Shown here: in pieces, positions 27,966-44,593 of the stretch | Position numbering within the stretch: the first letter of the stretch is position 1 | Layout of the letters: the number at the start of each line of letters is the position of its first letter | Assembly (NCBI GenBank): GCA_041686855.1 | Contig: JAWLDA010000006.1 | Span: forward strand, 194,034 to 258,033 | DNA: 64,000 nucleotides | Direction of reading: 5' to 3' | DNA from: Limnochordia bacterium | GTDB lineage: Bacteria; Bacillota; Limnochordia; DTU080; RSA5 | Translations under genes and position numbers: made by a program | Notes under the pieces: model-generated | Told to the model about the DNA's origin: nothing | What the model saw: only the letters and a program-made list of their open reading frames with translations | Database searches by the model: none

Positions 27966-30710
27966 TTGATGGTGCAAACACACGGAGTGTTATTTCCACC
28001 ACCGATTCCACAGGGCCCTCCGCTCAACGGTCCGGTTCTCCTCAGGGATGGCCGTCCGGCCTATCTCAGGGAGGCTGGACCCGACGATATCCAGGAGTTG
28101 ACTGAGCTTGTCCGGCGAACGTCGGGCCACTCATTGTACTATCGGTTCTTTGGGGGAGTGGCGCGCACGCAGGAGATCGCCGAACGGTTGTTGGCGCCGC
28201 CGTCACCGCCCGACACGCCACCTGGGCTTGCCCTCGTTGTCACGGTGGGAGATGGAGAACGCTTTGAAATCGTCGGGGTGGGCAGCTACCTGCCACGCTC
28301 CGCTCGAGAGGCGGAAGTTGCCTTCTTGGTCCAGGATGACCATCACGGAAAGGGAATCGGCACCCTTCTACTCGAGCGATTGTCCTTAGCCGCAGAAGCA
28401 GAAGGCTTTGAACGCCTCATTGCCCACGTGCTGCCGGAGAACGAAAAAATGGTACGGGTCTTCTCCGACAGCGGCTACGAAGTGGTGCGTCAACTCGACG
28501 AAGGCGAACTCCTCATCTCGCTCGATATCGAGCATACGGCTCGGAGTGTGGAACTCTTCGAAGAGAGGGATCGCACTGCGACTGTCGCTTCCCTCCAATC
28601 CTTTTTTCGTCCGCGTTCGGTGGCTGTGGTAGGAGCCTCCCGCGACCCGAGTAGTATCGGGCATCGAGTCCTCAAAAACCTGATTGCCGCCGGGTTTAAC
28701 GGACCTGTTTACCCAGTGAATCCCCGAGCCGATGTAGTCGCCTCGATTCCGGCGTACGCGTCGGTCGTCGACATTCCGCGCCCTGTCGATCTGGCGATTA
28801 TTGCGGTCCCGCAACCGGCAGTCCTCTCAGTGGTGGAGGAGTGCGCCCAAAAAGGTGTGCGCGGCCTCGTGGTTTTGACGGCCGGTTTTGCGGAGACGGG
28901 CGAGGAAGGGCGCGCGCTGCAGCAGGAGCTCTTGCGACGGGTGCGGGGCCACGGAATGCGCATGGTAGGACCCAACTGCCTCGGACTTTTGAATCTCTCC
29001 TCCGACGTTCGGCTCAACGCGACCTTCTCTCCTACAGCTCCGCCGCCGGGACGGGTTGCGATGTCATCACAGAGTGGCGCTCTAGGCATCGCCATCATGG
29101 AGTACGCCAGGGAGTTGGGTCTTGGGCTCTCGTCCTTTGTGAGTGTCGGCAACAAGGCTGACGTCTCCGGTAACGATCTCCTACAATACTGGGAAGAGGA
29201 TCCAGAGACGAATCTGATCCTGCTGTACCTTGAGTCCTTTGGTAATCCCCGGCGCTTTGCACGTCTCGCGCGTCGCATCTCGCACCAGAAACCCATTTTG
29301 GCGGTGAAGAGCGGGCGCACTTCGGCCGGTCGCAAGGCGGCAGGCTCGCATACGGCCGCCCTCGCAGCGAGTGATGTCGGCGTCGAAGCCCTGTTCCGAC
29401 AGGCGGGGGTGATCCGGGTGGACACGCTCGAGGAGATGTTTGATGTGGCATCACTCCTCGCGCACCAGCCCATTCCGCAAGGCAGCCGGGTAGCCATTTT
29501 GACGAACGCCGGCGGGCCCGGAATCATGTGTGCGGATACGTGCGAGGCGGAAGGCCTGCAGCTGCCGGAGCTGACCGAAGCGACGCGTGAAGCTCTTCAA
29601 GCGTTTTTGCCGTCGGCGGCGAGTGTAACCAACCCTGTCGACATGGTCGCCTCGGCCACGGCGGACGATTACCGCCGATCGATCACCTTGCTCCTGGATG
29701 ACGAGAACGTAGACGCGGTCATCGTCATCTTTATCCCGACCGGGAGCGTAGACATCGACGCGGTCGCGCAAAGCATTCGCCGGGGCCGTTCGGAGGCTCA
29801 GACAGGTCGCCAAAAGCCACTCCTCGCATCGTTTATGGGCGCGCGCGGGATGTTGACGTCACTCGCCGATCAGCACGAAGGGGTTCCGTCGTATCGCTTT
29901 CCGGAGTCTGCGGCTCGGGCGCTGGCCAAAGCTGCGGCCCACGGCGCGTGGCGGCTCCGTCCCCGAGGGGTGATTCCCGCATTGGACGGGATCGACGTTC
30001 AGCGGGTTAAAGCGGTGTGTGAAAGGGCACACCGGCGCGGCAATGAGAGCTGGCTCCTTCCTGACGAGGTCGACGAGGTCCTACGTGCCGTAGGGATTCC
30101 TGTTGCCGAAACCGTGTTTTGCAGAAACGTCGATGAGGCGGTGGCAGCCGCAGATCGCCTCGGATATCCGGTGGTCGTCAAACTCGCTTCGGCCACGTTG
30201 GTACACAAGACTGAGTGGGATGGTGTCCGTCTCAACATCGACTCACCGCAAGCCGTCGTGGAGGCCTACTCCGGGATCCGCGAACGTCTGCGTCAAGCGG
30301 GCAGAGAAGACGAGATGGCTGGAGTGAGCATCCAGCCGATGGTAAAGGGAGGCACGGAGGTGATGATTGGGGTGACTGAGGATCCCAGCTTTGGCCCTCT
30401 CATCGCCTTCGGACTCGGCGGAGTCACGGTTGAGTTGCTGGGCGACGTCGTCTTCCGCATCACCCCGCTAACCGACCAGGACGCCGCCGAAATGGTCCGT
30501 GGCATTCGCGGTGCGCGCCTACTCGAGGGGTACCGTGGCGCTCCGCCGTCTGACTTGGAGAGCTTAGAGGATATGTTGCTGCGCCTTTCACAGCTCGTCG
30601 AGGAAGTTCCCCTGGTTGCGGATATTGAGTTCAATCCGGTTCGCGTCTTCTCCGAGGGCCAGGGCGCGCTCGTTCTCGACGCCCGCATACTCGTCCGCCA
30701 CGATGGATAG
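27966..30710 (+). CDS. Pat-type protein lysine acetyltransferase (N-terminal GNAT + CoA-binding + ATP-grasp)
   Basis: GKGIGTLLL GNAT motif, PRSVAVVGAS, GPNCLG, SVGNKAD, SHTAALA, HKTEWDGV. Confidence 0.88.
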   Translation: MMVQTHGVLFPPPIPQGPPLNGPVLLRDGRPAYLREAGPDDIQELTELVRRTSGHSLYYRFFGGVARTQEIAERLLAPPSPPDTPPGLALVVTVGDGERFEIVGVGSYLPRSAREAEVAFLVQDDHHGKGIGTLLLERLSLAAEAEGFERLIAHVLPENEKMVRVFSDSGYEVVRQLDEGELLISLDIEHTARSVELFEERDRTATVASLQSFFRPRSVAVVGASRDPSSIGHRVLKNLIAAGFNGPVYPVNPRADVVASIPAYASVVDIPRPVDLAIIAVPQPAVLSVVEECAQKGVRGLVVLTAGFAETGEEGRALQQELLRRVRGHGMRMVGPNCLGLLNLSSDVRLNATFSPTAPPPGRVAMSSQSGALGIAIMEYARELGLGLSSFVSVGNKADVSGNDLLQYWEEDPETNLILLYLESFGNPRRFARLARRISHQKPILAVKSGRTSAGRKAAGSHTAALAASDVGVEALFRQAGVIRVDTLEEMFDVASLLAHQPIPQGSRVAILTNAGGPGIMCADTCEAEGLQLPELTEATREALQAFLPSAASVTNPVDMVASATADDYRRSITLLLDDENVDAVIVIFIPTGSVDIDAVAQSIRRGRSEAQTGRQKPLLASFMGARGMLTSLADQHEGVPSYRFPESAARALAKAAAHGAWRLRPRGVIPALDGIDVQRVKAVCERAHRRGNESWLLPDEVDEVLRAVGIPVAETVFCRNVDEAVAAADRLGYPVVVKLASATLVHKTEWDGVRLNIDSPQAVVEAYSGIRERLRQAGREDEMAGVSIQPMVKGGTEVMIGVTEDPSFGPLIAFGLGGVTVELLGDVVFRITPLTDQDAAEMVRGIRGARLLEGYRGAPPSDLESLEDMLLRLSQLVEEVPLVADIEFNPVRVFSEGQGALVLDARILVRHDG

Positions 30711-30717
30711 GACGAGC

Positions 30718-31779
30718 TCAAAGGCGGGCGATAATGGCGTCGGCCACCTCCTGAGTCGTGGCCTTGCCGCCTAGATCGGGAGTGAGGGCTTTCCCTTCGT
30801 CCAGCACCTCTTCGATAACCCTCATCAATGTGGCGGCGGCGTCTTGATGACCCAAGTGTTCCAGCATCATGGCGCCGCTCCAAATCTGCCCGATGGGGTT
30901 GGCGATGCCCTGCCCTGCGATGTCCGGCGCGGAGCCGTGAACGGGCTCGAACATCGAAGGATAGCGCCTCTCGGGGTTGAGGTTTGCCGACGGGGCGATC
31001 CCGATGCTTCCCGCAATGGCCGCCCCTAAGTCCGTAAGAATGTCTCCAAAGAGGTTTGAGGCCACGACGACGTCAAAACGTTCAGGTTTGAGGACGAACA
31101 TAGCAGCGAGCGCATCGATGTGGATCAGTTCGTGCTGAATGCCAGAGTGCTCGCCTGCGATCTCGTTAAAGACATCGTCCCAAAACGGCATGGTGTAGTT
31201 GATGCCATTTGATTTGGTCGCGCCGCAGACTCGAGTGCGACCCTCGCGCTCGGCGAGCGCAAACGCGTATCGAATCACCCGCTCGGTTCCGTGGCGTGTA
31301 AAGAGAGTGTTTTGGACAACCACTTCGTGTTCAGTGTTCTGGTGTAGGCGGCCACCCATGTTGGAGTACTCACCTTCGGTATTCTCACGTACCACGAGCA
31401 TGTCGATGTCGGCCGGCTCCTTGCCCGCCAGAGGAGGGGCGATGCCCGGCAAGAGCTTGACAGGCCGCAGGTTGATGTACTGTTGAAAGGTGCGGCGGAT
31501 GGGCAACAACAGACCCCAAAGGGAGACGTGATCGGGGACTCCGGGGTATCCGACGGCGCCAAGAAAGATCCCTTCGAAATCGGCGAGGGTTGTGAGAAAA
31601 TCATCGGGTGCCATTCTCCCGTGTTCAAGGTAGTAGGCGCAGCTCCACGGGAAGGATTGGTACTCCAAGCTCCAACCTCCGTCCGCGCGGCTGAGCGCGT
31701 CGAGGACGCGCGTAGCCTGAGAGACGACCTCTTGGCCAATGCCATCCCCAGGTATGAGGGCAATGCGGTGAGTATCCAT
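30718..31779 (-). CDS. Tartrate dehydrogenase/decarboxylase family
   Basis: IPGDGIG, VPDHVSLWGLLLPIRR, RENTEGEYS, NLFGDILTD, FEPVHGSAPDIAG. Confidence 0.88.
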   Translation of the reverse strand: MDTHRIALIPGDGIGQEVVSQATRVLDALSRADGGWSLEYQSFPWSCAYYLEHGRMAPDDFLTTLADFEGIFLGAVGYPGVPDHVSLWGLLLPIRRTFQQYINLRPVKLLPGIAPPLAGKEPADIDMLVVRENTEGEYSNMGGRLHQNTEHEVVVQNTLFTRHGTERVIRYAFALAEREGRTRVCGATKSNGINYTMPFWDDVFNEIAGEHSGIQHELIHIDALAAMFVLKPERFDVVVASNLFGDILTDLGAAIAGSIGIAPSANLNPERRYPSMFEPVHGSAPDIAGQGIANPIGQIWSGAMMLEHLGHQDAAATLMRVIEEVLDEGKALTPDLGGKATTQEVADAIIARL

Positions 31780-31841
31780 GTAAGTGCCTCCTTTATCCGA
31801 GTCGCATTCTCGCCGTCCACCCGGCAGCCCTGCCATCTGTT

Positions 31842-32558
31842 GTGCACAATATCGTTTTGGGGGAGAGTGTGTTGAGTAGACTGGGAGTCATCTTTGACCT
31901 CGATAACACGTTAGTGCAGTCCAAAATCGACTTTCGCGGCATGGCACAGGCACTCGAAGATCGGTTGCGGGAACGCCTCGGGCCTGCCGTGGTGCCGGAG
32001 GGTCTTGCGCAGAATCCAATCTCACAAATCATTGAATCGGCTAAAAGCCTCTCCACGGACAAAGCGCTCATCGACGAACTGTGGCAGATTGTCTCCCTCC
32101 ACGAAGCAATGGGAATGGAGGGCCTCGAGCTAGAACCGGGGGCGCTGAGCGTCGTGGAGACGTTGACACGTACCGGCCACACCCTCGCGATCTGCACCAA
32201 CAATGCTCGCCCGGCGACGTTAAAGGCGATTCTCCCGTTTGGGGATCCGCCACCTTTTACGCCGGTTGTGACTCGAGACGAAGTCCATGCTCTGAAACCC
32301 TCTCCGGAAGGGGTCCAGATGATTCTCAAAGCGTGGCAAGGAATGGACGTCCACGAGGTTATTATGGTGGGGGATTCATGGCTCGACGGAAAGGCGGCAG
32401 CAGATGCGGGCGTGCCCTTTGTCGAGTACCAAGGTCGGCCATCCCGCTTCCGTAGGGAGCCCGTTCCCGTTTGGCATCGAATCGAACGTCTAAGTGATCT
32501 CCTTGCCATCATCGACCAACGGGAATTGGGAGCGTGGACACCGAAAGAGTCCTTCTAG
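31842..32558 (+). CDS. HAD-family hydrolase
   Basis: FDLDNTL, CTNN, KPSPEG, VGDSWLD. Confidence 0.85.
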   Translation: MHNIVLGESVLSRLGVIFDLDNTLVQSKIDFRGMAQALEDRLRERLGPAVVPEGLAQNPISQIIESAKSLSTDKALIDELWQIVSLHEAMGMEGLELEPGALSVVETLTRTGHTLAICTNNARPATLKAILPFGDPPPFTPVVTRDEVHALKPSPEGVQMILKAWQGMDVHEVIMVGDSWLDGKAAADAGVPFVEYQGRPSRFRREPVPVWHRIERLSDLLAIIDQRELGAWTPKESF

Positions 32559-32603
32559 CCTCACCTGCGCTGTGGGGCTGAGGTTGGGCAATTTATTGGA
32601 GGT

Positions 32604-33335
32604 GTGAGCATGTCTAGACGGCAGCCAAAGTTTCAACGGTACGTTGCTCTGGTGGCGCTGGCCGTGTTTGCGTTGGTCGCGCTGGGAGTCTCTGAAAGGC
32701 CAGTGGTTCAGGCGAGGAACGACGAGGATGGAGGCTTGCTCGTACAGGTTGTAGGCGTCGGCTCGGTGACGAGCGACCCCGACTTTGCGACCGTCGGCTC
32801 GGCCATCGAAGGGGTGGGCGAGACACCTCAAGAGGCCCGGGATGCCGGTGATCGACTCTTTGAAAGTGTGAACGCCGCCATGGGAGAGCTTGGTGTGAAG
32901 CTGATACCAGGCGGTTATAGCGTACACCCTCGTTACGAGTACTCCGAGGTACGACGTGCATCGGAGATTGTGGGTTATTCGGCCTCCCGATCCCTCGAGG
33001 TGCGAGTTGATGATCTTACACGTGTCGGCGATGTGTTGGCAGCACTGCTGGAAGCTGGTGTCGGCTCCATCCATGGCGTGACTTTTGATACGACCGAGGC
33101 CGAAGAGCTGCGACGCCAGGCGATAAAGGAAGCGATCGCCGACGCTGCTCATCAAGCAGACGCGGTGGCGGAGGCCATGGGCGCCCGCGTGATTCGTGTC
33201 GAGGAGATCACAGTGGACGGGGCGAATCATGGTCCCATTTTGTATGCGTCTCGCGAGGGCGGCTCGAACGCGTTCGAACCCTCGCCGGTCGAAGTGAACT
33301 CACGCGTCACGGTGCGGTACCTCCTGAATTACTAA
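32604..33335 (+). CDS. SIMPL/DUF541 family exported protein
   Basis: Signal peptide; VVGVGSV...PD, LRRQAIKEAIADA. Confidence 0.8.
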   Translation: MSMSRRQPKFQRYVALVALAVFALVALGVSERPVVQARNDEDGGLLVQVVGVGSVTSDPDFATVGSAIEGVGETPQEARDAGDRLFESVNAAMGELGVKLIPGGYSVHPRYEYSEVRRASEIVGYSASRSLEVRVDDLTRVGDVLAALLEAGVGSIHGVTFDTTEAEELRRQAIKEAIADAAHQADAVAEAMGARVIRVEEITVDGANHGPILYASREGGSNAFEPSPVEVNSRVTVRYLLNY

Positions 33336-33388
33336 GCGAAACCAACGTCACTTGGATCAGTATAACTAGGGCAACGAGAGCATACGCA

Positions 33389-33420
33389 GGCGTCCAGGGA
33401 TTAGCCCCTGGACGCTTTTT
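33389..33420 (+). terminator. Rho-independent terminator
   Basis: GCGTCCAGGG-ATTAGC-CCCTGGACGC-TTTTT. Confidence 0.75.
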
Positions 33421-33604
33421 GCGTTGAGCGCGGCAGCGCCGCAAAGGAGTAGGGACCATTCTCCTGTAGGACTGGGCCCTTTGGGTAAAGCGCGTGAGGA
33501 ATGTCACATAAGTTGCGGAGTGCCAGCGCGGGATTGTTCTACCATGATGGGGAATCACGACCATTCCCCTATGGAAATTGGGGAAATAGGAGGCGAACCG
33601 ATTC

Positions 33605-35002
33605 ATGGTGTTTCACTTTCGTAATATCAGCGCGAGCGTCATAGTGTTGCTCGCCGCTCTCATTGTCGTTGCGGGAATTGCCCTGGCTGCGCCGGAGCCG
33701 CCCGTCATCACGCATGCCGGGGACGTTCAAGCGGAGATCCCTTTGGCTGTGCCGTTCGATCCCGTGGCGCCGCCCCGACCGCCACAGGGCGAGATTGTAC
33801 ACTTCACGTTGGAGGCGAAGCTCGCTCGTTTGGAAGTAGCTCCTGGCGAGTTTAAGGAAGTTTGGACGTTCAATGAATCAGTTCCTGGACCGACCCTCAG
33901 AGTGAATCAGGGGGACACGGTCCGCTTCACCCTCATCAACAAAGATCCCAACATGGAGCATGGACTTGACTTTCACGCAGGGCAGATGGATCCGGGCACG
34001 TATCACCGATCCATCCAGCCGGGTGAGAGCATCACCTTCGACTTTGTCGCTAGATATCCCGGGGTCTTCTTTTATCACTGTAGCGCCGATCCGGTGATCA
34101 TGCACATCGCCAACGGCATGTTCGGTGCAGTGATCGTCGATCCACCGGGATACGTGCCGACCGGCAAAGAGTATGTACTCGTCCAACACGAGTGGTACGA
34201 GGATCCGACCGATCTCGACCAACTTCTAAACGCTAACCCGGTCAGTTTGGCGTTCAACGGGGTCCCCTTCCAATACATGGACGCACCCTTGACTGCCGAG
34301 CCCGGTGAGCAGATTCGATTCTACGTGGTGAATGCCGGTCCCAATCGATTCTCTGCGTTCCATGTGATTGGCGGCATCTTTGACAAGGTACTGTTTGACG
34401 GGAATCCCGCAAACGCTCATTACGGTTCCCAAACGGTGACGGTACCGCCGGGGGGAGCGCTGGTTGCAGACCTCGTGGCCGACACTGGGACCTATCCTGT
34501 GTTGACTCACGCAATGAACGACGCCAACAAGGGTGCTCTGGGTCTGCTCCGAGTGGGAGAACCCGAGGTGTCGCATGGGGAGTCGACCGCTTCAAGCTCC
34601 CGACACGAGACGGCCACTCCCTCTACCGATGTGAGTGCCGCCCTTGACCCGTCCGCTGCAGGGACCCCGCCGTCGCCAAGCGATTCGGTTGCAACTGCGA
34701 CAGGCTCCGCGGGTGAGCAGGTGCTCATCTCGGGATACGCGTTTAAGCCCAAGCGGCTGACGATCAAAGTCGGCACGACGGTAACCTGGCTCAACCAGGA
34801 TCGAACGGGCCACGCAGTGGTTCACAAAATGTCTCATCCGTCGGAGCGTCTCTTTGACTCGACGGGTGAGAGAGACGGTGGCGAGAAGCGACTCTTTAAC
34901 CGAGGAGAAAGTTACAGTTTCACCTTTACCGAACCGGGCATTTACGAGTACACGTGTTCCCCGCACCCCTATATGAGCGGAACCATCATTGTGGAGGAGT
35001 GA
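33605..35002 (+). CDS. nirK: Copper-containing nitrite reductase with C-terminal cupredoxin domain
   Basis: Signal peptide; HGLDFHA (T1 His, catalytic Asp, T2 His), YHCSADPVIMHIANGM, SAFHVIGG (catalytic His), YPVLTH; Ser/Thr/Pro linker; cupredoxin GHAVVH...YTCSPHPYM. Confidence 0.85.
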   Translation: MVFHFRNISASVIVLLAALIVVAGIALAAPEPPVITHAGDVQAEIPLAVPFDPVAPPRPPQGEIVHFTLEAKLARLEVAPGEFKEVWTFNESVPGPTLRVNQGDTVRFTLINKDPNMEHGLDFHAGQMDPGTYHRSIQPGESITFDFVARYPGVFFYHCSADPVIMHIANGMFGAVIVDPPGYVPTGKEYVLVQHEWYEDPTDLDQLLNANPVSLAFNGVPFQYMDAPLTAEPGEQIRFYVVNAGPNRFSAFHVIGGIFDKVLFDGNPANAHYGSQTVTVPPGGALVADLVADTGTYPVLTHAMNDANKGALGLLRVGEPEVSHGESTASSSRHETATPSTDVSAALDPSAAGTPPSPSDSVATATGSAGEQVLISGYAFKPKRLTIKVGTTVTWLNQDRTGHAVVHKMSHPSERLFDSTGERDGGEKRLFNRGESYSFTFTEPGIYEYTCSPHPYMSGTIIVEE

Positions 35003-35008
35003 CCGCCC

Positions 35009-37141
35009 GTGTTGCGCATGCATCGTATGACAAGATTGGTCGTCGTGACGCTAGCGTGTATCGGACTCCTTATCACCCCGGTGTCGGCACATAAACTGCT
35101 CGAACCCGATTGGAGTATGGACGAACTGGTTCAAGAGGTACACGAAACCTTCCTTGGGGGAACAGTTCCCGCTGAGAAGATGACGGGGAACGTGCGTGAG
35201 TTTCACATGTACATCGCAGAGATCGAGCACGAAATCACCGAGGGCGTGACGGTGACAGCTTGGGCCTACGGCTTGGAAGGGGAAGAGGCGACTGTTCCAG
35301 GACCCACGCTTAGGGTTAAAAAAGGCGATCTCGTTCGTATTTACCTATCCAACCGGCACGACCAACCGCACTCCTTGCATCCCCATGGGATTACGACTGT
35401 GGATGTCCTCAACGACGGAGTGCCGCACACCTCGGGTGCCTACATCATGCCTGGTGAGACGCTCATGTACGAGTTTGTAGCTCAGGAGTCAGGCACGCAC
35501 GCCTATCACTGCCACGTGCAAACCTCAGTGCACCAGGATATGGGCATGTACGGCGGCCTCATCGTCGAAGAGGATGAGCCGGTCGTATGGGATCGGGAGT
35601 ATGTCGCTATCATCGATGAATGGGATACCCGGCGGGACCCTACCAACGCAGCCGAGATTCCAGAGTACAACTACTACGTCGTGAACGGCAAATCCGGCAC
35701 CTCGGTGCCCGACTTCCTCATCTTGGACGGTGAGGTGGGCCGAATTCGGCTGATCAACATGGGATTTCAGTCGCACGCCCTTCACTTGCACGGCACGGCG
35801 TTTGTCGTGACGCACAAAGACGGGTATCAACTGCCGGCGCCTTACCGAGGTGACACCATTAATATCGCCCCGGGGGAGACGTACGACGTCCTCGTTCAGG
35901 GAAGGGATGGAGTCTTCCCCTGGCATGACCACAACTCGCTGGCAGCGACAGACGACGGCGTCTACCCCGGTGGCATGCTGATGCATACCGTCGGATCCCC
36001 TGAAGTGCGCTTTAACCCGGCCTACGATCCACCTCGCTACGCCATTGAAGGTCACGTACACGACGGAGATGCAACACGCGCGCAATATGGCATCGTGGAT
36101 CTTGACGAGGAGGGGGCGTCAGACCACGAGCATGAGATGGAGGATCGTGGAACGACTCCACAACCGATCGAGGCGAGCAGCTCTGATGGGGAGACGGCCC
36201 TTATTTCGGAGACGTCGGGGCGCACAGCCCCGGCGGTTGCGAGGGTTCCTATGGCACCGATGGAGCCTCCGGAGATCGTAAAAGGCGCTGCGGATGTCAA
36301 GTCAGGTATCGGTCCGGCTCAACCCTTTGATCCAGTGGCACCATCGCCTACCATTCAAGGTGAAGTGGTCGAATTCACGCTGGAAGCCACACGGGCCACC
36401 CTTGAAGTGGCCCCTGGAGATGTCCGGGAGGTATGGACCTTTAACGGGTCGGTTCCAGGGCCGACGTTGCGCGTAAATCAAGGGGATACTGTTCGTTTCA
36501 CGCTCATCAATAAGGATCCCGAAATGGCGCACGGGCTCGACTTTCATGCTGGACAGATGGATCCTGGTATCTATCATCAAGCAATCGAGCCCGGCGAGAG
36601 CATCACGTTTGATTGGGTTGCCCGATATCCCGGGGTCTTCTATTACCATTGCAGTGCCGATCCAGTGATCATTCACATTGCTAATGGGATGTTCGGCACC
36701 GTGATCGTCGACCCGCCGGGGTATCAACCGGCCGACAAAGAGTACGTCCTCGTGCAGAATGAGTGGTATCGGTCAAACAACGATCTCGATGTGTTACTGG
36801 AGGAGAAACCTGTTGCTGCAGCGTTCAACGGAGTACCGGCGCAATACGTCGACAATCCACTGACGGCCGTTGCCGGTGAAAGCCTGCGCTTTTACGTCGT
36901 CAACGCAGGCCCGAGCGATTTCGCTGCCTTTCACGTCATTGGCGGGATCTTTGACAGAGTACTCTTTGATGGGAATCCGCGGAATCCACAGTTTGGCGTG
37001 CAAACCGTGACGGTACCCCCCGGTGGCGCCGTCGTAGCGGATATGATCGTGCCAGATCCGGGCGATTATCCGGTGTTGAGTCATCTGATGAGCTCAGCGA
37101 CGAAGGGGGCGCTGGGGATCCTACACGTCACCGGCGACTAG
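35009..37141 (+). CDS. Fusion of two-domain multicopper oxidase (type C) and copper nitrite reductase
   Basis: N-half HSLHPHG, YHCHVQTSVHQDMGM, HALHLHG, WHDH; His/acidic linker; C-half HGLDFHA, YHCSADPVIIHIANGM, AAFHVIGG, YPVLSH. Confidence 0.85.
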   Translation: MLRMHRMTRLVVVTLACIGLLITPVSAHKLLEPDWSMDELVQEVHETFLGGTVPAEKMTGNVREFHMYIAEIEHEITEGVTVTAWAYGLEGEEATVPGPTLRVKKGDLVRIYLSNRHDQPHSLHPHGITTVDVLNDGVPHTSGAYIMPGETLMYEFVAQESGTHAYHCHVQTSVHQDMGMYGGLIVEEDEPVVWDREYVAIIDEWDTRRDPTNAAEIPEYNYYVVNGKSGTSVPDFLILDGEVGRIRLINMGFQSHALHLHGTAFVVTHKDGYQLPAPYRGDTINIAPGETYDVLVQGRDGVFPWHDHNSLAATDDGVYPGGMLMHTVGSPEVRFNPAYDPPRYAIEGHVHDGDATRAQYGIVDLDEEGASDHEHEMEDRGTTPQPIEASSSDGETALISETSGRTAPAVARVPMAPMEPPEIVKGAADVKSGIGPAQPFDPVAPSPTIQGEVVEFTLEATRATLEVAPGDVREVWTFNGSVPGPTLRVNQGDTVRFTLINKDPEMAHGLDFHAGQMDPGIYHQAIEPGESITFDWVARYPGVFYYHCSADPVIIHIANGMFGTVIVDPPGYQPADKEYVLVQNEWYRSNNDLDVLLEEKPVAAAFNGVPAQYVDNPLTAVAGESLRFYVVNAGPSDFAAFHVIGGIFDRVLFDGNPRNPQFGVQTVTVPPGGAVVADMIVPDPGDYPVLSHLMSSATKGALGILHVTGD

Positions 37142-37926
37142 GGAAGCGTCGACGATACAATAGGGTAGGAGGCGGGGGTAATCCAGTCATCCAGCCTTCT
37201 GCCCGATCCAATTTCAATAGGTTGCTTCTTATCTTCGGCAACGCCCGGCTTTTGGAGTGCAACATAGAGATGGCCCTCGCTATCTAGCTCCGCGTAGAAT
37301 ACGTCTTTCACGGAAGAGATCCCAAGCCGTTGGAGCTCCTCCTCCAGCCACGCACCATTGAGGTCGAGCCGCTCCAGCATTTCGAAATCCGCCTTGCCGT
37401 CATAGATGACCGTCGTGGCTAATCCTCGATAGGGTGTGCTAATACCCAAGTCACGTGCCCGTACCGGTTCTTCTTGTGACTTGCGCAGGATCGAAATCTC
37501 TCCGTTCGCTTCGACGAGAGCGAATTCCACCTCAGCTAGGTTAAAGACACCGTTAAGGCGAAGCAACTCGAGTACTTGATCGAGAGAGTAACGGATTTTA
37601 CGAAGATTATGTTTGAGGAGCTTGCCGTTTTGCACGATGATGGTGGGTTCAAATCTCATGATGTGGCGAAACCGTCGGCTCTTGAGGATCCCATAGGAAC
37701 TCCCGATTTGTAGGAGGACCAGCAGCACGATGGCCAAGACGGTGGGGCCATGCTCAATACTGGGATCTGCGATATCGGCTCCAACTACGGCTCCCAAGAC
37801 GATGGCGATGACGAAATCAAAGACAGGTAACTCTCCAACTTGCCGCTTCCCCATGAGTAAGGTCATGCAAAAGACCAAAGGAATGATCGTAACGATTCGA
37901 CCGGCAGTGATCAGGTACGCCTCCAC
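37138..37926 (-). CDS. DUF421/YetF family membrane protein
   Basis: LMGKRQVGELPVFDFV, PTIIVQNGK, ALVEANGEISI. Confidence 0.85.
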   Translation of the reverse strand: MEAYLITAGRIVTIIPLVFCMTLLMGKRQVGELPVFDFVIAIVLGAVVGADIADPSIEHGPTVLAIVLLVLLQIGSSYGILKSRRFRHIMRFEPTIIVQNGKLLKHNLRKIRYSLDQVLELLRLNGVFNLAEVEFALVEANGEISILRKSQEEPVRARDLGISTPYRGLATTVIYDGKADFEMLERLDLNGAWLEEELQRLGISSVKDVFYAELDSEGHLYVALQKPGVAEDKKQPIEIGSGRRLDDWITPASYPIVSSTLP

Positions 37927-38040
37927 CTACGTCGCTCCTTGAGTGAGCTGGATCCGGTTTCAAAATTGAACGTTTCTGGGGGGATGGGTGTACCATAGTC
38001 TTGGCACTACATCAAAGGGGTATGCGCCGTTGGATATACA

Positions 38041-38077
38041 GAAATAGAACCGGGGGAGTGTGCCGCGGTTCTATTTC
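38041..38077 (-). terminator. Hairpin downstream of the displaced tRNA-Ser 3' end (probable original tRNA terminator)
   Basis: GAAATAGAACCG...CGGTTCTATTTC 12-bp inverted repeat. Confidence 0.65.
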
Positions 38078-38107
38078 GTAGGGGAAAGCTGCATTCGAGA
38101 ATGAAGT

Positions 38108-38164
38108 TGGCGGAGGAGGAGGGATTCGAACCCTCGTCACCCGTTAGGGTGGCACGATTTCCAG
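38108..38164 (-). repeat. att site: 57-bp duplicate of the tRNA-Ser(GGA) 3' end
   Basis: TGGCGGAGGAGGAGGGATTCGAACCCTCGTCACCCGTTAGGGTGGCACGATTTCCAG is identical to 52210-52266. Confidence 0.95.
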
Positions 38165-38255
38165 GCACATGGAACGGGAACACAGTCCAAACAATCCACT
38201 ATATATAGGCTTTTGGCAGAATGTGTCTCTCCCGTTTAGTACGATTTTGGATTGG

Positions 38256-38280
38256 CATTGTAGTCAGGATTGTAGTCATT
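38256..38280. repeat. Candidate integrase arm-type sites (left)
   Basis: CATTGTAGTCA-GG-ATTGTAGTCATT; the same tandem occurs at 52151-52176. Confidence 0.7.
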
Positions 38281-38288
38281 TCCGAGCC

Positions 38289-39197
38289 CTATCTATTACC
38301 TCTCGAATTCTTTTGCCGACATGCGGGGCTGCATGTCCGCCTGTTTGGCCTTGAGTATCCCTGTCCCACTGGAAACCAGACATCGCACCCTTCTGTTTCG
38401 CAGATACGCCACTCAACCCCTCCTGTAACCACTTGCGCAAACTGTAGCCATATAGCACCTTTAAGGGACTTGACAAAGACTTTCATATGGAGGCTTGGCC
38501 CTCTCGTCGTTGCTCGCCCTCTTGGTGCGTATTCCGGGGAGTAATAGGTCTCGTTGAATAGCTCAGTGGATATCCTGTTTTCGAGTAGTGCAAGCGCTGC
38601 GCCGTAATAGTTCCCTTCACCGATGGCATTAAAGAGCCATGGCTGCGAGGGCTTTTGTATGGTTGAAAGGATTTCCACGGCAGTATACTGCTCCCCTGGT
38701 ACGTACACGATGCGGTCTCGAAGAGAAGGTATATCCATCGGTGGCTCCTCAGCAAACCGTTGTGCTTCATTGATCGCTTCCCAAATTCTCCAAGCGCCCC
38801 GCAAAAAATCGATCTGCGTCGCAAATTCATCAGCCCAGAACCCTTTACGACCCGTCCTTAGAGGATGATCAACGGATTCGAAAGTCCCGTATTGTGAGGC
38901 AAAATCGTACGCAGCGTCAATTGTTGGATTCAACTTTCGAAGACGGTGGAATAGATCAGGTGTTTCACTCAGTGGTTGATAAGTTCGGTCGATTATTTGT
39001 TCACAATGAATGAATATGCCGCTCTTCTCCGAGCGTGTGTCATTGTTAATATTCTCTGCTACGAAGCCTCCTTTAGGAATGAACCACTCAAAGGCAAAGC
39101 CTCCCTCAGTGGGTTGGATCGGCCTCATACCGTTGTCACTCCCTGCCGTCACAGAATTGATACGCAAAAAGTGTGGTTGGTCACATAAACATTGCAC
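38289..39197 (-). CDS. Hypothetical protein with C-terminal CGNR-like zinc finger
   Basis: RICETEGCDVWF...RPNRRTCSPACRQK; start uncertain. Confidence 0.7.
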   Translation of the reverse strand: MQCLCDQPHFLRINSVTAGSDNGMRPIQPTEGGFAFEWFIPKGGFVAENINNDTRSEKSGIFIHCEQIIDRTYQPLSETPDLFHRLRKLNPTIDAAYDFASQYGTFESVDHPLRTGRKGFWADEFATQIDFLRGAWRIWEAINEAQRFAEEPPMDIPSLRDRIVYVPGEQYTAVEILSTIQKPSQPWLFNAIGEGNYYGAALALLENRISTELFNETYYSPEYAPRGRATTRGPSLHMKVFVKSLKGAIWLQFAQVVTGGVEWRICETEGCDVWFPVGQGYSRPNRRTCSPACRQKNSRGNR

Positions 39198-39254
39198 TTA
39201 AAGTGTTCCATTCCTGGCGTGAGTGAACCAAAATAGGAGAAAACGTGATAGGGG

Positions 39255-39491
39255 GTGCCAACCGAGGTGAATACAGCGATAGACAGTCGGGTGGCGCAAA
39301 GTGCTGGGAGACGGTTGTTTACCGTATCGGAGGCCGCCAAGTACGGTGGATGGAGCACGAGCTTCGTTTACAAGGCTGTTGCGAGAGGAATCTTCCCTTC
39401 CGTTCGTATTGAAGGGACTCGGAGCGTGAGAATTGACCGGCAGGACCTCGACGCCCTTATCGAGCGCAATAAGGTCGGTAGCTTAGGGTAA
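39255..39491 (+). CDS. Excisionase-family HTH protein
   Basis: LFTVSEAAKYGGWSTSFVYKAVARGIFPSVRIEG...VRIDRQDLDALIE. Confidence 0.85.
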   Translation: MPTEVNTAIDSRVAQSAGRRLFTVSEAAKYGGWSTSFVYKAVARGIFPSVRIEGTRSVRIDRQDLDALIERNKVGSLG

Positions 39492-39540
39492 CGTCGCTAC
39501 AACACCCGATAGCAGGTCGGCATTCGGGAGGTGGTCGGAC

Positions 39541-39720
39541 TTGCAGTCATTGGACGGGAATGGCATGGCGAATGGATTCAGGACGAGTCCGAGAGTGACA
39601 TGGGAGGACCGCACAGCCTTCCCATTATCTGTGGATGCTGACTGGCTAGCGCCTCGCCTGTCGAAAGGTAAGGCGAAAGTGCGCCTCCGGCGTCATTGGA
39701 TATGGGGGCGGTTCGGGTGA
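39541..39720 (+). CDS. Small hypothetical protein (59 aa), coupled to the DUF3987 gene
   Basis: GGGAGGTG RBS before TTG 39541; its TGA overlaps GTG 39717 (GTGA). Confidence 0.45.
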   Translation: MQSLDGNGMANGFRTSPRVTWEDRTAFPLSVDADWLAPRLSKGKAKVRLRRHWIWGRFG

Positions 39721-41324
39721 GCAGTTTGCCCAAAGTTGACCTTCGTAAGTACAAGGCGTTAAGGGAAAATGGTGTACCCGATGACGAGGCCGAGCGCATT
39801 GTTATGGATGGAATCTGGCCGCCTCCCGTACCGTTTTATCAGGCCGAATTGCCATCCTTCCCTACACAAACTCTCCCCAAGTGGCAGCGAGACTTTGTAG
39901 AAGCGGAGGCGGAGGCGACGCAGACTCCGCCGGACCTCGCAGCCATGCAGACCCTGTGCGTCGTTGCCGCGGCTATTCAGCGAAAGGTGGTCGTACGCGT
40001 TCGGGAGGGGTGGACTGAGCCTGTCAACCTTTTTACCGTGGTTGTACAGGAGTCCGGTACACGAAAGAGCCGGGTTACCAAGGATACAACGGCTCCGGTG
40101 GAAGATTGGGAAGAACGAGAAGGAAGCTACATTGAGCCTGCAATCCACGAGGCGTCCAATGCTTATCGAATCAAGGAAACGCGGTTGCAACGGCTACAAC
40201 GCCAAGCTGCACAGGCCGATGAGGTCAGGGATCAACGGCGACTTGCTGACGAGGCATTGGACTTGGCTTGGGAACTTGCCGAGTTGGAGATTCCTGTTCC
40301 CCCTCGAATAATAGCCGACGATACGACGCCTGAAAAGCTGCAAACGCTAATTCGAGACCACGAAGGCCGGATGGCTGTAGTGTCGCCTGAGGGTGATGTC
40401 TTCGACATAATGTCGGGACGGTATTCCACCACTGGTGAGTCCAATTTCGGGGTTTATCTCAAAGGGCATGCGGGTGATACCTTGCGAGTGGATCGAGTGG
40501 GTCGCCCGCCCGAGTATGTCCGCAATCCCGCGTTGACGGTGTCCTTGGCAATCCAGCCGGAAGTGCTACGGGGACTGCATAGTAAGTCCGGTTTTCGCGG
40601 GAGGGGATTGTTGGCACGGTTTCTCTATTCCCTGCCACCCAGTTTGGTGGGAAAGCGGAAGATTGATGCCCCGCCGGTACCTCGAACGATACGCACCACG
40701 TACGAGACGTACGTTGATGAACTCCTATCACTTCCATGGACGACCGGTAGTGAGGGAGAGAAGATTGCCCACGAACTCCATTTTTCTGACGGGGCTCGGG
40801 TACGTTTTTTGGAGTTCATGAAACGACTAGAGCCGGCACTTGCTCGCACCGGTGAACTTGGCACCATTGCTGACTGGGGCGGGAAATTAGCCGGTACGGT
40901 GGCTCGAATCGCCGGATTGTTGCACGTGGGCAATCAGGTTATGGCATCCATGCGGTGGGAAGCACCCATTGGCCAGGAGGTCGTGGAACGTGCCATCATC
41001 ATCGGTGAAAAGTATCTTATTCCACATGCTAAGGCCGCTTTCGGGGAGATGGGTGCGGACCCTTCGGTCGATGACGCCCGCTACATCCTTGAGATTATCT
41101 CCGAAAAGATCTTGGAGGGATTTAAGAAGCAAGATATGTGGCAACTAACCAAAGGGCGATTCAAAAAGGTTGAGGGTCTTAATGAGGGACTAAGGCTATT
41201 AGTCGAGCATGGATACCTACGGGAGAACGTCCCAGAAACGGAGCCCGGTAGACGTGGACGAAAACCTGCACCGACTTACGACGTGAATCCGTTGCTGTGG
41301 TCCTACAATTCCTACGATTCCTAA
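39717..41324 (+). CDS. DUF3987/YfjI family protein (putative element replication protein)
   Basis: EPVNLFTVVVQESGTRKS P-loop-like motif, DDTTPEKL, SPEGD, VDRVGR, IQP, GRGLLARFL, C-terminal wHTH-like region; ORF track start is 39696. Confidence 0.8.
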   Translation: MSSLPKVDLRKYKALRENGVPDDEAERIVMDGIWPPPVPFYQAELPSFPTQTLPKWQRDFVEAEAEATQTPPDLAAMQTLCVVAAAIQRKVVVRVREGWTEPVNLFTVVVQESGTRKSRVTKDTTAPVEDWEEREGSYIEPAIHEASNAYRIKETRLQRLQRQAAQADEVRDQRRLADEALDLAWELAELEIPVPPRIIADDTTPEKLQTLIRDHEGRMAVVSPEGDVFDIMSGRYSTTGESNFGVYLKGHAGDTLRVDRVGRPPEYVRNPALTVSLAIQPEVLRGLHSKSGFRGRGLLARFLYSLPPSLVGKRKIDAPPVPRTIRTTYETYVDELLSLPWTTGSEGEKIAHELHFSDGARVRFLEFMKRLEPALARTGELGTIADWGGKLAGTVARIAGLLHVGNQVMASMRWEAPIGQEVVERAIIIGEKYLIPHAKAAFGEMGADPSVDDARYILEIISEKILEGFKKQDMWQLTKGRFKKVEGLNEGLRLLVEHGYLRENVPETEPGRRGRKPAPTYDVNPLLWSYNSYDS

Positions 41325-41387
41325 GGTCGAATGAGGTCGGACGGCGCGTCGGTATTCGCTAATATAGGGAAATTAGGAATTGCAGGA
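41301..41387. repeat. Iteron-like inverted repeat (candidate replication origin)
   Basis: TCCTACAATTCCTACGATTCCTA (41301-41323) inverted against TAGGGAAATTAGGAATTGCAGGA (41365-41387); 18/23 match with 9-nt periodic CCTA units. Confidence 0.6.
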
Positions 41388-41739
41388 TGAAGCAGGTTTT
41401 TGTAGTTTCGACACGGAGCGTGAGGTGGTTTCAGTGGCATACAGCAAGAAGGCGAGAATGGTTCGACAATGCATGGGGCGACGGGCCGATGGGCGACGAT
41501 GCCGAGCCTGGGCGGTCTGGGACGACTCAAAACAACTCTGTGTGGCCCATCTGGGCCGACACCACCGTGGTCCAATGCCTCCGCGGTGGGCAAGCCGTCC
41601 GAGGCGACGGCGGGCAAAGGCTGTGCCTTGCACGTGTCGGGCGTACGCTTGGCCGCATCGTCCCGGAGGTGGACTGTGCAAGTGGCCGGATCCGCCCCAT
41701 TACCGTTGTACAACCCCGGCTGGAACGAGGCGAGAGTGA
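41380..41739 (+). CDS. Small basic Cys/His-rich protein (HGGxSTG-like zinc-binding)
   Basis: CMGRRADGRRCRAWAVWDDSKQLCVAH and CTCRAYAWPHRPGGGLC; true start probably downstream of 41380. Confidence 0.55.
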   Translation: MQDEAGFCSFDTEREVVSVAYSKKARMVRQCMGRRADGRRCRAWAVWDDSKQLCVAHLGRHHRGPMPPRWASRPRRRRAKAVPCTCRAYAWPHRPGGGLCKWPDPPHYRCTTPAGTRRE

Positions 41740-41874
41740 CTGTTGTGACTTGTGTGAGAAGGAAAGCAACAGCTTGTTCTTGCCGGACACCGTCAGGGAG
41801 AGATCGAGATCAGTGGTAAATCGGTCCAATCCTAGAACGCCCAAACGTTTCTCACCTGTCAATAGCTATCAGGT

Positions 41875-42480
41875 GTGAGTTATGCGACAAAGCGATTGAT
41901 CGGGAGACACGAGTTTCGTGAGGTAGCATCTCTCTCAAGGGGCATGAACGAAATGGAGGACTGCATTTTGATGAAAACGGAGAGGGCAGACGTTGAAGAA
42001 AATCAGACCTTGATTGAGCAGGCGCAGGCGGCGTACCGCAAGGCAGCAGAGCAAGAGCGGGAGATAAAGGGGCGGTTGTGCGAGACGTTCGCTGAGCTGG
42101 ACGCTAAAGCCTCGAAGATTAAGGCCGTACAGAGAGAGATCCTCACGAGTGACTTCGATAAAGCGGTCGTATCCCAAGCGGATGTTGAATGGCTTGAGCG
42201 CGAGCACAAGGTTTTGACTCAGCACCGTATTGCACGAGAAAAGGAACTGAAAGAGGCCGAAGCCAAGACACGGGCGGCAAAGGCTGAGATTGAACGGCTG
42301 CGCCATCGGGCGTACAATCTGCGGACAATTATTATTCCGAAGCAGAGTGGCGTCGTGGAGGCGAAGGAACGGGACGTATGTGAGGCTGAGAGGGCGCTCT
42401 CGAATTTTCGGATGGCGCTTGCCGAGTCTCGTCGTGTGACCGAGGATCTGGAGGGCGAACTACGTATGATTGGTGATTAA
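41875..42480 (+). CDS. Coiled-coil hypothetical protein
   Basis: E/K/R/A-rich heptad-like composition throughout. Confidence 0.65.
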   Translation: MSYATKRLIGRHEFREVASLSRGMNEMEDCILMKTERADVEENQTLIEQAQAAYRKAAEQEREIKGRLCETFAELDAKASKIKAVQREILTSDFDKAVVSQADVEWLEREHKVLTQHRIAREKELKEAEAKTRAAKAEIERLRHRAYNLRTIIIPKQSGVVEAKERDVCEAERALSNFRMALAESRRVTEDLEGELRMIGD

Positions 42481-42715
42481 CTTGGTGGGACGGCGCTTGG
42501 GATCGTGGAAAGGGATCGCGTTATGCACCTTAATCCGCCCTTCGCAGGGTCGGTCCATTTGATTCCGTACTCCCCTATCGAAGTGCCTGCTAAAGATGGT
42601 GATTATGACAATATAGTTCCGTTTTCGTGTTAAGGGGAAGGGGATCGCTACGGTCGGGCAGAAATCCGCAAATAGAGTTCCGAGAATATGCAGAAGCGGA
42701 ACAATAGCATTTGGA

Positions 42716-43315
42716 GTGATATTGATGGCTAAGACCCGACGAAAGAAACTGCCGAAGACCTTAACCACTGAAGAGCGCCTTGCGTTGCTGGCCGCACCGA
42801 ACGCGAAGTGCCCAACCGGCCTTCGAAATCTCTGCATGTTGCACCTCATGGCAAACTGCGGTTTGAGAGTCGCCGAGGTGATTGGATTAAAGGTGCACCA
42901 AATCGACTGGCAGAGTGGCAGGATTATGGTGCACGGCAAAGGGGCAAAGGACCGGGTCGTCTGGATGAACGAGGGGACATTGGAGTTGATTCGCTCTTGG
43001 CGTGAAAAGCGTCCGCATCCATCTGGCGAGCTATTTACGACCATGAAGGGTGACCCGGTGAGCGATCGCTACGTGCGTTACATGGTCAAGCGGATGGGGA
43101 CGCGGGCTGGGATCGAGAAGGGTGACGACGGCGTACACCCGCATATGCTGCGCCATACGGCCGCGACAGACCTATACAGGGAGACAAAAAACATCCGGTT
43201 GGTCCAAAAATTCCTCGGCCACGCCGACCTTTCGACCACAATGGTTTACACCGAAATCGTCGACGACGAGTTGGAAGATGCGTTGCGGAATTTCAGACGG
43301 AATGAGGCGGTTTAA
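42716..43315 (+). CDS. Small tyrosine recombinase (catalytic domain only, ~200 aa)
   Basis: GLRVAE, KGAKDR, HPHMLRH, LGHADLSTTMVY. Confidence 0.9.
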   Translation: MILMAKTRRKKLPKTLTTEERLALLAAPNAKCPTGLRNLCMLHLMANCGLRVAEVIGLKVHQIDWQSGRIMVHGKGAKDRVVWMNEGTLELIRSWREKRPHPSGELFTTMKGDPVSDRYVRYMVKRMGTRAGIEKGDDGVHPHMLRHTAATDLYRETKNIRLVQKFLGHADLSTTMVYTEIVDDELEDALRNFRRNEAV

Positions 43316-43581
43316 ACTCTGGTGACCGAGCGCCGTCTGACGGGACATTGATTTGAAGACTGACAGCGTCATTTTATCATTGAATTCCTCTGGCTGTGGT
43401 GACCTTGGGGTTTATCGCCTTTACGTTTTCGGCGGCTCCTCTACCTATCGGTCAAAGACGGGTTTCGTTAAACACGTACCAAGCGGGTGCCCCTTCCGTG
43501 AATGGTGCAAAGGAGGCTGGTATTCCCCCGGGGAAAGACGTAAAATCATCGGTGCCCGTTACGATATGGAGGGCCGGACGT

Positions 43582-43917
43582 TTGAAAGCGAAGTTGTTAT
43601 GGGTTCTCATTGCAATCGTGTTGGGCATTACCGGGTTATCTGTCGTAGATGATCCGGTGTTGCTCGATCTCCCTGAGCGGATATTGCCCCTTGATAGCCT
43701 GGATCAGATTGACGAAATACGGGCGAGGGTAGATAGCAGCAGCTATGAATCCGCCCATCAGGCCAGGATGATTGCTTCTTTTTTCTACGGGCCTGAGATT
43801 CCCCTTACGGAGTGGGTTCTGCGAACCGATCGAGTACCTTCGAACACCGGCTGGCGAATGACCTTCCTCATCAGCCGTTACAATAGCAAGTACAAAGACC
43901 TGGGCGCGATCCTCTAA
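43582..43917 (+). CDS. Hypothetical exported/membrane-anchored protein
   Basis: GGAGG RBS before TTG 43582; N-terminal KLLWVLIAIVLGITGLSVV. Confidence 0.5.
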   Translation: MKAKLLWVLIAIVLGITGLSVVDDPVLLDLPERILPLDSLDQIDEIRARVDSSSYESAHQARMIASFFYGPEIPLTEWVLRTDRVPSNTGWRMTFLISRYNSKYKDLGAIL

Positions 43918-43980
43918 TTCATCGAGCCAGTGGGGGTACCTCTTGTTCCCCCACCGATGTCGTCAAAGGAGGCGCCATAG

Positions 43981-44584: not shown

Positions 44585-44593
44585 TGGGGCAAA

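Follow-up and report, generated by a model that had tools for sequence, protein, structure and literature searches.

Tethered Nitrite Reductases, Nitrifier Oxidases, and the Gene Pair

The partners described for tethered copper nitrite reductases are a cupredoxin and a cytochrome c, and TsNiR of Thermus scotoductus SA-01 (6HBE) is a three-domain enzyme of this kind that carries its cupredoxin at the C-terminal end (PMC7201279). In the nitrifiers Nitrosomonas europaea and Nitrobacter winogradskyi, a multicopper oxidase and NirK, encoded by ncgABC and nirK, act together in nitrite tolerance and the handling of nitrogen oxides (PMC5080386, PMC6967387). Both nirK and ncgABC confer nitrite tolerance on N. 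europaea, and nirK lowers fitness in ncgABC mutants (PMC5080386, PMC6967387); the role of the partnership between NcgA and NirK has not been fully worked out (PMC6967387). Two adjacent genes of a Limnochordia bacterium, located in a 64,000-nucleotide stretch of its DNA (the window, whose numbering gives the coordinates below), are compared here with these systems. Gene 1 (33605-35002, + strand, 465 aa) encodes a NirK core followed by a cupredoxin, and gene 2 (35009-37141, + strand, 710 aa) encodes a two-domain multicopper oxidase (2dMCO) fused to a second NirK core.

An earlier note on this DNA had proposed a tight pair of paralogous NirK cores with different fused partners. Pfam domains and BLASTP agree with it, and the open reading frames (ORFs) bear out the gap that it gave between the genes, a spacer of 6 bp (35003..35008, +). 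A GGAGG sequence 9-10 nt 5' of the GTG start of gene 2, its ribosome-binding site, overlaps the 3' end of gene 1. The class to which gene 1 belongs is known. The oxidase-NirK fusion, which forms one narrow family, and its conserved pairing with a cupredoxin-tethered NirK are seemingly undescribed, since full-text literature searches, whose coverage leaves out subscription journals and supplements, brought up neither. The fusion would bring a new type of partner to the tethered nitrite reductases, namely a complete O2-reducing multicopper oxidase. On balance, it is judged just probable that both proteins are homotrimeric, that the cupredoxin of gene 1 is a shared point of electron entry, and that the pair passes electrons to nitrite or O2 while nitric oxide (NO) is kept limited.

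Gene 1, a Cupredoxin-Tethered NirK

Residues 1-28 of gene 1 (33605..33688, +) form a putative signal peptide with its presumed cleavage point after ALA; a second one opens gene 2 (35009..35089, +; residues 1-27), with presumed cleavage after VSA. Both were read by eye from the translations and not taken from a predictor, and both are Sec-like and free of an RR pair, in agreement with the earlier claim of Sec-type signals without a twin-arginine motif. The NirK module that follows in gene 1 (33689..34564, +; residues 29-320) contains both copper sites and the catalytic residues: the type-1 copper (T1Cu) ligands are H119, C159, H167, and M172 as read on the window translation, the type-2 copper (T2Cu) ligands are H124, H158, and H302, and the catalytic pair is Asp122 and His253. 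The ligand roles in this core, as in that of gene 2, are assigned through the classical NirK numbering. A disordered linker rich in Ser, Thr, Pro, and Ala (34565..34711, +; residues 321-369), with a predicted local distance difference test score (pLDDT) below 50 at residues 322-368, connects the core to the C-terminal cupredoxin (34712..35002 with the stop codon, +; residues 370-465). This domain, of the plastocyanin type, matches the Copper-bind family (PF00127) at residues 378-464 (E 1.8e-21), and the intact His-Cys-His-Met set previously claimed for it is found as H403, C451, H454, and M457. The gene 1-type ligands and catalytic residues are invariant in all 19 proteins of the corresponding alignment (A2).

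TsNiR shares the order of parts of gene 1, with a NirK core, a linker, and a C-terminal His-Cys-His-Met cupredoxin. The alignment of gene 1 to 6HBE runs across all three domains (residues 65-463, E 1.1e-62), and the same structure is the top Foldseek match for the gene 1 model (E 3.8e-36 over 450 columns, 31% identity), with a root-mean-square deviation of 15.8 Å over the 450 columns that indicates a different or arbitrary placement of the domains. A member of this class would hold its tethered T1Cu about 14 Å, an electron-transfer distance, from the core T1Cu of the same subunit. Judged by its sequence, gene 1 is a further member of the cupredoxin-tethered NirK class known from T. scotoductus. 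It differs from TsNiR in the low identity just given, in a core that is nearer to Geobacillus NirK (best solved relative 3WKQ, E 9.7e-68), and in being always followed by the oxidase-NirK fusion, a neighbor that the accessible text on TsNiR does not mention (PMC7201279).

The NirKs of Geobacillus thermodenitrificans and G. kaustophilus (3WKQ, 3WI9, 3WIA) and of N. europaea (4KNS) are the best solved relatives of both cores (E 1e-67 to 1e-58, about 40% identity), with template modeling (TM) scores of 0.84-0.89 against the gene 2 model and 0.83-0.87 against that of gene 1. They share the N-terminal arm and the ligand set with the cores, but are plain two-domain proteins with no tethered partner. 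Both cores carry the NirK motifs H-x-x-D-x-H and H-C-S, whereas the N-terminal half of gene 2 carries H-x-x-H-x-H and H-C-H, the motifs of a trinuclear cluster; both cores are therefore of the nitrite reductase type and not trinuclear-cluster oxidases. The possibility that they are disguised two-domain oxidases like Nmar_1354 of Nitrosopumilus maritimus (E 6.5e-44 to gene 1) was rejected, because the His residues of the trinuclear cluster are replaced.

Gene 2, a Fusion of Oxidase and NirK

The 2dMCO module of gene 2 (35090..36022, +; residues 28-338) holds its T1Cu in domain 1 (H121, C168, H175, M180), and its eight trinuclear-cluster His residues form four H-x-H pairs (H124/H126, H167/H169, H259/H261, H306/H308). 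An acidic, disordered linker (36023..36250, +; residues 339-414, pLDDT below 50) leads to the NirK module (36251..37141 with the stop codon, +; residues 415-710), which matches 3WIA (E 1.1e-63, TM 0.89). Its T1Cu ligands are H508, C548, H556, and M561, its T2Cu ligands H513, H547, and H692, and its catalytic residues Asp511 and His642. Pfam places one set of Cu-oxidase_3, Cu-oxidase_2, and Cu-oxidase domains N-terminally and a second set in the C-terminal half. Together with the match to 3G5W, this upholds the laccase-type module reported 5' of the NirK core and defines it as a 2dMCO. None of the 21 ligand and catalytic positions in the two halves of gene 2 varies among the 27 fusion proteins aligned (A1). 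The ligand sets predict six copper ions per chain, which would make eighteen per particle if the protein is trimeric.

The oxidase half is closest to 3G5W (E 2.5e-41, TM 0.72) and 2ZWN (E 3.7e-39), and the NirK half to the Geobacillus and N. europaea NirKs (E about 1e-63 and 1e-58, TM 0.89 and 0.84, respectively). Like gene 2, 3G5W (the N. europaea blue copper oxidase) and 2ZWN (the metagenomic mgLAC) have the T1Cu in domain 1 and four H-x-H pairs; however, they are free-standing proteins of about 320 residues, whereas the module of gene 2 is fused to a NirK core. Oxidases of this kind are the 2dMCO labeled "type C," and 3G5W corresponds to NcgA, the multicopper oxidase of the ncgABC genes. 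For each half of gene 2, N. europaea proteins are among the nearest solved relatives, a further likeness to the ncgABC-nirK arrangement. The nitrifiers have separate genes with two cytochrome c genes between them, whereas here the two enzymes make up one polypeptide and a second NirK, with a cupredoxin, precedes the fusion. No cytochrome c domain was found in the ORFs scanned for domains around the pair (about 22.8-54.4 kb of the window) or in the scanned neighbors of four other loci of the pair (L009, L010, L011, L041). The earlier statement that no NO reductase or cytochrome gene is adjacent holds for the same ORFs of the window. By joining homologues of the N. europaea blue copper oxidase and NirK, the fusion indicates that these enzymes act together, and the pair may show how such oxidases and nitrite reductases cooperate.

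In most fusion proteins, the oxidase half is followed by some 55 additional residues that are conserved (GDPxF...NSxxW...LHxxN...GxW, columns ~400-455 of A1), an insert that is missing from the gene 2 protein of the window and from the Symbiobacteriaceae forms. Unfused Paenibacillus oxidases (L013:7001-8320) carry the same segment as a C-terminal tail. Some Symbiobacteriaceae forms of the fusion add a C-terminal domain resembling the N-terminal domain of copper amine oxidase (PF07833).

The Cupredoxin-Oxidase Junction

The three modules were searched separately against all retrieved loci. The closest unfused relatives of the gene 2 oxidase half belong to Paenibacillus (70% identity) and nest within the fusion clade with 99% support; at three loci of this genus, 12 bp separate the unfused oxidase gene from the end of a preceding SLH-cupredoxin gene. 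The sister clades of the fusion and Paenibacillus oxidases have a C-terminal tail of 90-200 residues. This tail matched the gene 1 cupredoxin at three Deinococcaceae loci and in a paralog on another contig of this genome, a fused oxidase-cupredoxin in which Pfam also finds the cupredoxin. In the remaining rows of the tree the tail was judged by its length and by Pfam lists, and Pfam finds no cupredoxin in the four unfused Paenibacillus oxidase rows. Nmar_1354 (MCO4, 9CCK) is likewise a 2dMCO ring with a dangling C-terminal cupredoxin, whose copper lies 13.5 Å from the T1Cu of the oxidase (PMC11761707). The fused form of Nmar_1354 recurs in the paralog of this genome and in the Deinococcus relatives. 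Nmar_1354 differs from the pair in having no NirK core; in the window the cupredoxin belongs to the neighboring protein, and both proteins have NirK cores.

In the window, gene 1 closes with the cupredoxin and gene 2 opens with the oxidase. The old cupredoxin-oxidase junction is thus preserved between the two genes, and each of its sides has gained a NirK core on the outside. The recurrence of a cupredoxin beside, or fused to, the same 2dMCO lineage is the main support for the cupredoxin of gene 1 serving the oxidase as well. This role, suggested in the earlier note, gains comparative backing from the Paenibacillus and Deinococcaceae loci, the paralog in this genome, and Nmar_1354.

Other combinations of these modules were met among the retrieved proteins. 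A NirK core also forms the C-terminal end of a separate set of larger proteins (830-970 aa; P0155, P0191, P0248, and about 25 more representatives). In the three named proteins, which were scanned, a cupredoxin precedes the core and is itself preceded by about 480-520 N-terminal residues without a Pfam family; tethered nitrite reductases thus seem to have a further N-terminal extension that has not been described. P0132, a singleton of 836 aa on a 3.5-kb contig, contains 2dMCO, cupredoxin, and NirK core in one chain, parts of which share about 55% identity with oxidase-cupredoxin proteins of Nitrososphaera. It was set aside as evidence, because neighboring genes read through as one could produce such a chain as well as a rare triple fusion in an archaeon.

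Conservation and Probable Transfer of the Pair

Among the best 120 of 2236 matches to gene 2, the full fusion is represented by 27 clusters (671-793 aa), and its named carriers are Symbiobacteriaceae and Paenibacillaceae genomes, including Ferviditalea candida. Clustering at 50% leaves a single representative with both halves. Three species-representative genomes contain the fusion, and metagenome contigs add two more loci; the database names of the fusion proteins are generic only. A gene 1-type ORF lies 3-15 bp 5' of the fusion in the window and at L009, L010, L011, and L041, while at L040 only the cupredoxin tail of such a gene is visible at the contig edge. The order of the pair is thus kept at all six loci where the sequence 5' of the fusion is readable. 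Equal contig sizes hint at nine more pairs, but this evidence is circumstantial. The flanking genes are unrelated between loci.

The view that the pair is conserved stands for these six loci but fails among the close relatives of the host: none of 40 genomes that share its family, order, or class has the fusion, and their best matches are single halves with at most 50% identity. A fusion-level score was also absent from 400 other genomes sampled from the phylum. For a ribosomal protein encoded in this genome, the relatives that carry a name come from Limnochordia. With no pair in relatives and an integrase element nearby, acquisition as a unit is the simplest reading, and the pair was probably acquired in this way from another Bacillota lineage, with the integrase element adjoining it. 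In the Paenibacillaceae locus L011 (L011:9303-12201), the genes behind the pair encode CopC, a YcnI-like protein (DUF1775), and a transposase of the IS1595 family; for this one genome, such neighbors connect the module with mobility and the handling of copper.

Putative Regulation

A Crp/Fnr-type palindrome, CGTGA-N6-TCACA (33493..33508, +), ends 97 bp upstream of the gene 1 start and is a candidate operator. One TGTGA-N6-TCACA box with at most one mismatch is present 5' of gene 1 at all five loci compared (the window, L009, L010, L011, L041). Shuffled upstream regions contain a mean of 0.04 boxes in total, and none of 2000 shuffles reaches five. TGTGA-N6-TCACA is the consensus of the Crp/Fnr family. 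The box is probably the operator of an O2- or NO-responsive regulator of this family and would travel with the module. A second, perfect palindrome (GGGGAAT-N7-ATTCCCC, 33548-33568) lies 36-56 bp 5' of the gene 1 start and was not seen at the other loci.

Denitrification Genes Elsewhere in the Genome

Two other NirK genes of this genome pass the curated NirK cut-off of the NCBIfam family TIGR02376 (342.5 and 352.9 bits), and one of these canonical genes adjoins a Crp/Fnr-family regulator and a DUF2249 protein. The genome search for NO reductases suggested in the earlier note turned up a quinol-type enzyme (qNOR; best match 3AYF, E 2.5e-139), which is encoded away from the pair. There is also a Sec-type NosZ with nosD/F/Y-like genes (NosD and ABC-transporter components by Pfam) and a small cupredoxin. 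From these genes the host would already be equipped to convert nitrite to N2, and the pair would add two more NirK cores. At least two nirK copies occur in only 5% of denitrifiers with copper nitrite reductase (PMC7775769), so it is unusual for a genome that has two NirKs to receive two further cores from a mobile module; the module may affect the release of NO and N2O.

No NarG was found in the genome. A molybdopterin-oxidoreductase-like frame of 661 aa with one in-frame TGA (G000:C6:91881-92411, locus L029) was rejected as NarG, scoring 49 bits against a cut-off of 1084, and may be a selenocysteine enzyme such as formate dehydrogenase. The gene at G000:C3:214200-215618 (locus L003; L042:5192-6688, minus strand) adjoins a TonB-dependent receptor and a TonB-like gene, a hint that this organism, whose genome resembles that of a spore former and includes a GerAC gene at another place, has an outer membrane.

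Proposed Working of the Pair

Both proteins are predicted to be exported by the Sec pathway, and each would form its own trimer. In gene 1, the cupredoxin on its flexible linker of about 47 residues would pass electrons to the T1Cu of the core and from there to the interfacial T2Cu, where nitrite would be reduced to NO. Gene 2 would consist of a 2dMCO ring and a NirK ring with a disordered linker of about 75 residues between them, and would reduce O2 at the trinuclear cluster. The catalytic copper sites are located between subunits, so each module of gene 2 would need trimerization, and the trinuclear clusters would form only between three gene 2 chains, which points to gene 2 homotrimers. The cupredoxin of gene 1 could act in cis on its own core, in trans on the oxidase ring of gene 2, and possibly also on the reductase ring. 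Gene 2 would then dispose of electrons on O2 or nitrite and limit the build-up of NO, and a Crp/Fnr-family regulator would set expression through the box carried with the module. The module could be regarded as a fused counterpart of the nitrifier ncgA(BC)-nirK cluster. As two soluble proteins without haem or membrane parts, the pair is tractable for studying how electrons are partitioned between nitrite and O2, the reverse reaction of NirK, and the mixing of cores.

Several observations weigh against this proposal. The AlphaFold2 model of gene 1 (predicted TM score, pTM, 0.64) has confident modules whose relative placement is not confident, and in that of gene 2 (pTM 0.51, linker pLDDT about 30) module placement is not confident either, so a fixed intramolecular electron path is not supported. 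Against the TIGR02376 cut-off of 296.3 bits, the gene 1 core scores 176.2 and gene 2 scores 234.7; despite these values, the nearest solved proteins of both cores are characterized NirKs. The ORFs scanned around the pair include no counterpart of an NcgB- or NcgC-type cytochrome. The Crp/Fnr-type box is not enriched across the genome (102 found, 82 expected) and is absent from the canonical nirK, qNOR, and nos loci of this genome, so that its weight comes only from its conservation across loci. Finally, the Paenibacillus genomes with the unfused cupredoxin-oxidase pair contain no match to a NirK core above 31% identity. The oxidase-cupredoxin unit can thus work without a nitrite reductase, and its coupling to nitrogen oxides is not obligatory.

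The Paenibacillus genomes would equally suit an explanation in which the NirKs are redundant paralogs, adjacent by descent and with no functional coupling, and the oxidase half works on its own; it might, for instance, be a cuprous or phenol oxidase of copper homeostasis with the task of protecting or metallating an envelope rich in copper. The long disordered linkers between modules fit such independence, as do the copper-handling genes CopC and DUF1775 behind the pair at L011. However, these neighbors occur at only one of the six loci. Lineages with 53-67% identical proteins and unrelated flanks have retained both the fusion and the gene order, and the 21 ligand and catalytic positions of gene 2 do not vary in either half. 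Absence of coupling is considered the least probable of the explanations given here.

A different kind of coupling would make gene 2 an NO (or hydroxylamine):O2 oxidoreductase. Its NirK ring would run in reverse, oxidizing NO to nitrite or oxidizing hydroxylamine, and electrons would pass through both T1Cu sites to the trinuclear cluster and O2, while gene 1 would make, supply, or buffer NO and electrons. The fusion does place a high-potential, O2-reducing sink on the same chain as a NirK core. NirK is reported to be reversible, although with poor kinetics (PMC6478695), and a fused oxidase would pull the reaction. The related tethered-cupredoxin 2dMCO Nmar_1354 oxidizes hydroxylamine with O2 (PMC11761707), and the genetic results in N. 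europaea point to NcgABC as clearing a toxic NirK product (PMC5080386). In a genome with two canonical NirKs, extra reductase capacity also seems needless. However, no docking of the modules is predicted for gene 2 (pTM 0.51), whose disordered linker of 75 residues sets no fixed copper-copper distance, and its core shows no type-specific substitutions that would signal a changed reaction. The Crp/Fnr-type box bears on both sides: it would more often stand for induction when O2 is scarce, the condition under which detoxification that depends on O2 helps least, but NO-sensing members of the family would fit it. We regard this reading as unlikely. If true, gene 2 would be the first enzyme of its kind, and would put both the unexplained partnership of NcgA with NirK and the missing "NO oxidoreductase" of nitrifiers in biochemical terms.

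The Two NirK Cores and Their Possible Co-assembly

The two cores align by BLASTP over residues 22-317 of gene 1 and 410-707 of gene 2, with 213 of 298 positions identical (71%, E 3e-149). The core coordinates of the earlier note match this alignment, and the identical runs that it quoted are present in the translations. At the DNA level, however, the cores are only 66% identical, the same codon is used for just 40% of the identical residues, and the longest exact run is 18 nt. These values led to the rejection of recent duplication or gene conversion as the origin of the runs. The long identical peptides are copper-site motifs that are invariant across the family (A1, A2). With synonymous sites largely diverged and no exact run above 18 nt, they reflect selection on the copper sites. 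The duplication of the cores is old, and there has been no recent gene conversion.

The cores, whose closeness to each other the earlier note had made a test of its idea, are mostly not each other's closest relatives. The gene 1 core reaches 76% identity to a gene 1-type core of another genome, against 75% to its own partner, and in most genomes the identity within the pair (64-73%) is well under the best same-type identity between genomes. This result counts in part against the mixed trimers proposed in that note, although an old duplication is still compatible with co-assembly. The maximum-likelihood tree of the cores does not cleanly separate the two types: a clean two-clade tree was set aside because the best tree needs three type changes, and a constraint that holds the gene 1-type cores together is not rejected (approximately unbiased test, p-AU 0.19). 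No core residue distinguishes the types at the 85%/10% threshold, and six weak ones do so at 70%/25%. Within-pair identity exceeds the median identity between gene 1 and gene 2 cores of different genomes in 12 of 13 pairs, of which five were seen on DNA and eight deduced from equal contig sizes only. The excess is 0.4-3 points in most pairs and about 10 points in that of the window, and one pair is reversed (63.8 within the pair, 65.1 for the cross-genome median). The pattern is compatible with occasional homogenization, with shared constraints, and with co-assembly alike, and does not discriminate between them.

These data bear on whether the similar cores co-assemble as mixed trimers (e.g., 2:1 or 1:2) that share cupredoxins, oxidase modules, and interfacial T2Cu sites. 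The 6-bp gap and the overlapping ribosome-binding site, in an order kept at all six readable loci, would favor co-translational assembly. The near absence of type-distinguishing residues means that the interfaces are not split into two fixed types, and the within-pair excess, above all in the pair of the window, points in the same direction. However, the excess is small in most pairs and could be explained by shared composition or lineage effects, and the reversed pair runs counter to it. The oxidase half needs three gene 2 chains per particle, which again points to gene 2 homotrimers, and every matched solved NirK is filed as a single protein. Mixed trimers are accordingly considered improbable, and separate homotrimers that share the cupredoxin of gene 1 are preferred.

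Boundaries and Surroundings of the Pair

A terminator-like hairpin at the end of the upstream SIMPL/DUF541 gene (33388..33417, +), with a stem of 12 pairs, 8 of them G-C, that contains a 10-nt perfect inverted repeat and is followed by a T run, is the 5' boundary of the two-gene unit. Downstream, a YetF-like gene is convergent with gene 2 and overlaps its stop codon. With this hairpin on the 5' side and a convergent gene on the 3' side, gene 1 and gene 2 therefore make up a separate unit.

A low-GC stretch (38200-43350, about 0.50 compared with 0.57-0.61) lies directly downstream of the pair. It carries a DUF3987 protein (39696-41324), ORFs without a family, and a tyrosine integrase (42716-43315), and looks like a small integrated element; no tRNA gene is located within 30000-45000 of the window. 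Among the sequencing runs matched to the window as a whole, none is of RNA, and four DNA runs contain only 5-7% of its words. Further downstream, at 50782-52053, the window contains a second gene of the phage-integrase family, which has an N-terminal SAM-like domain.

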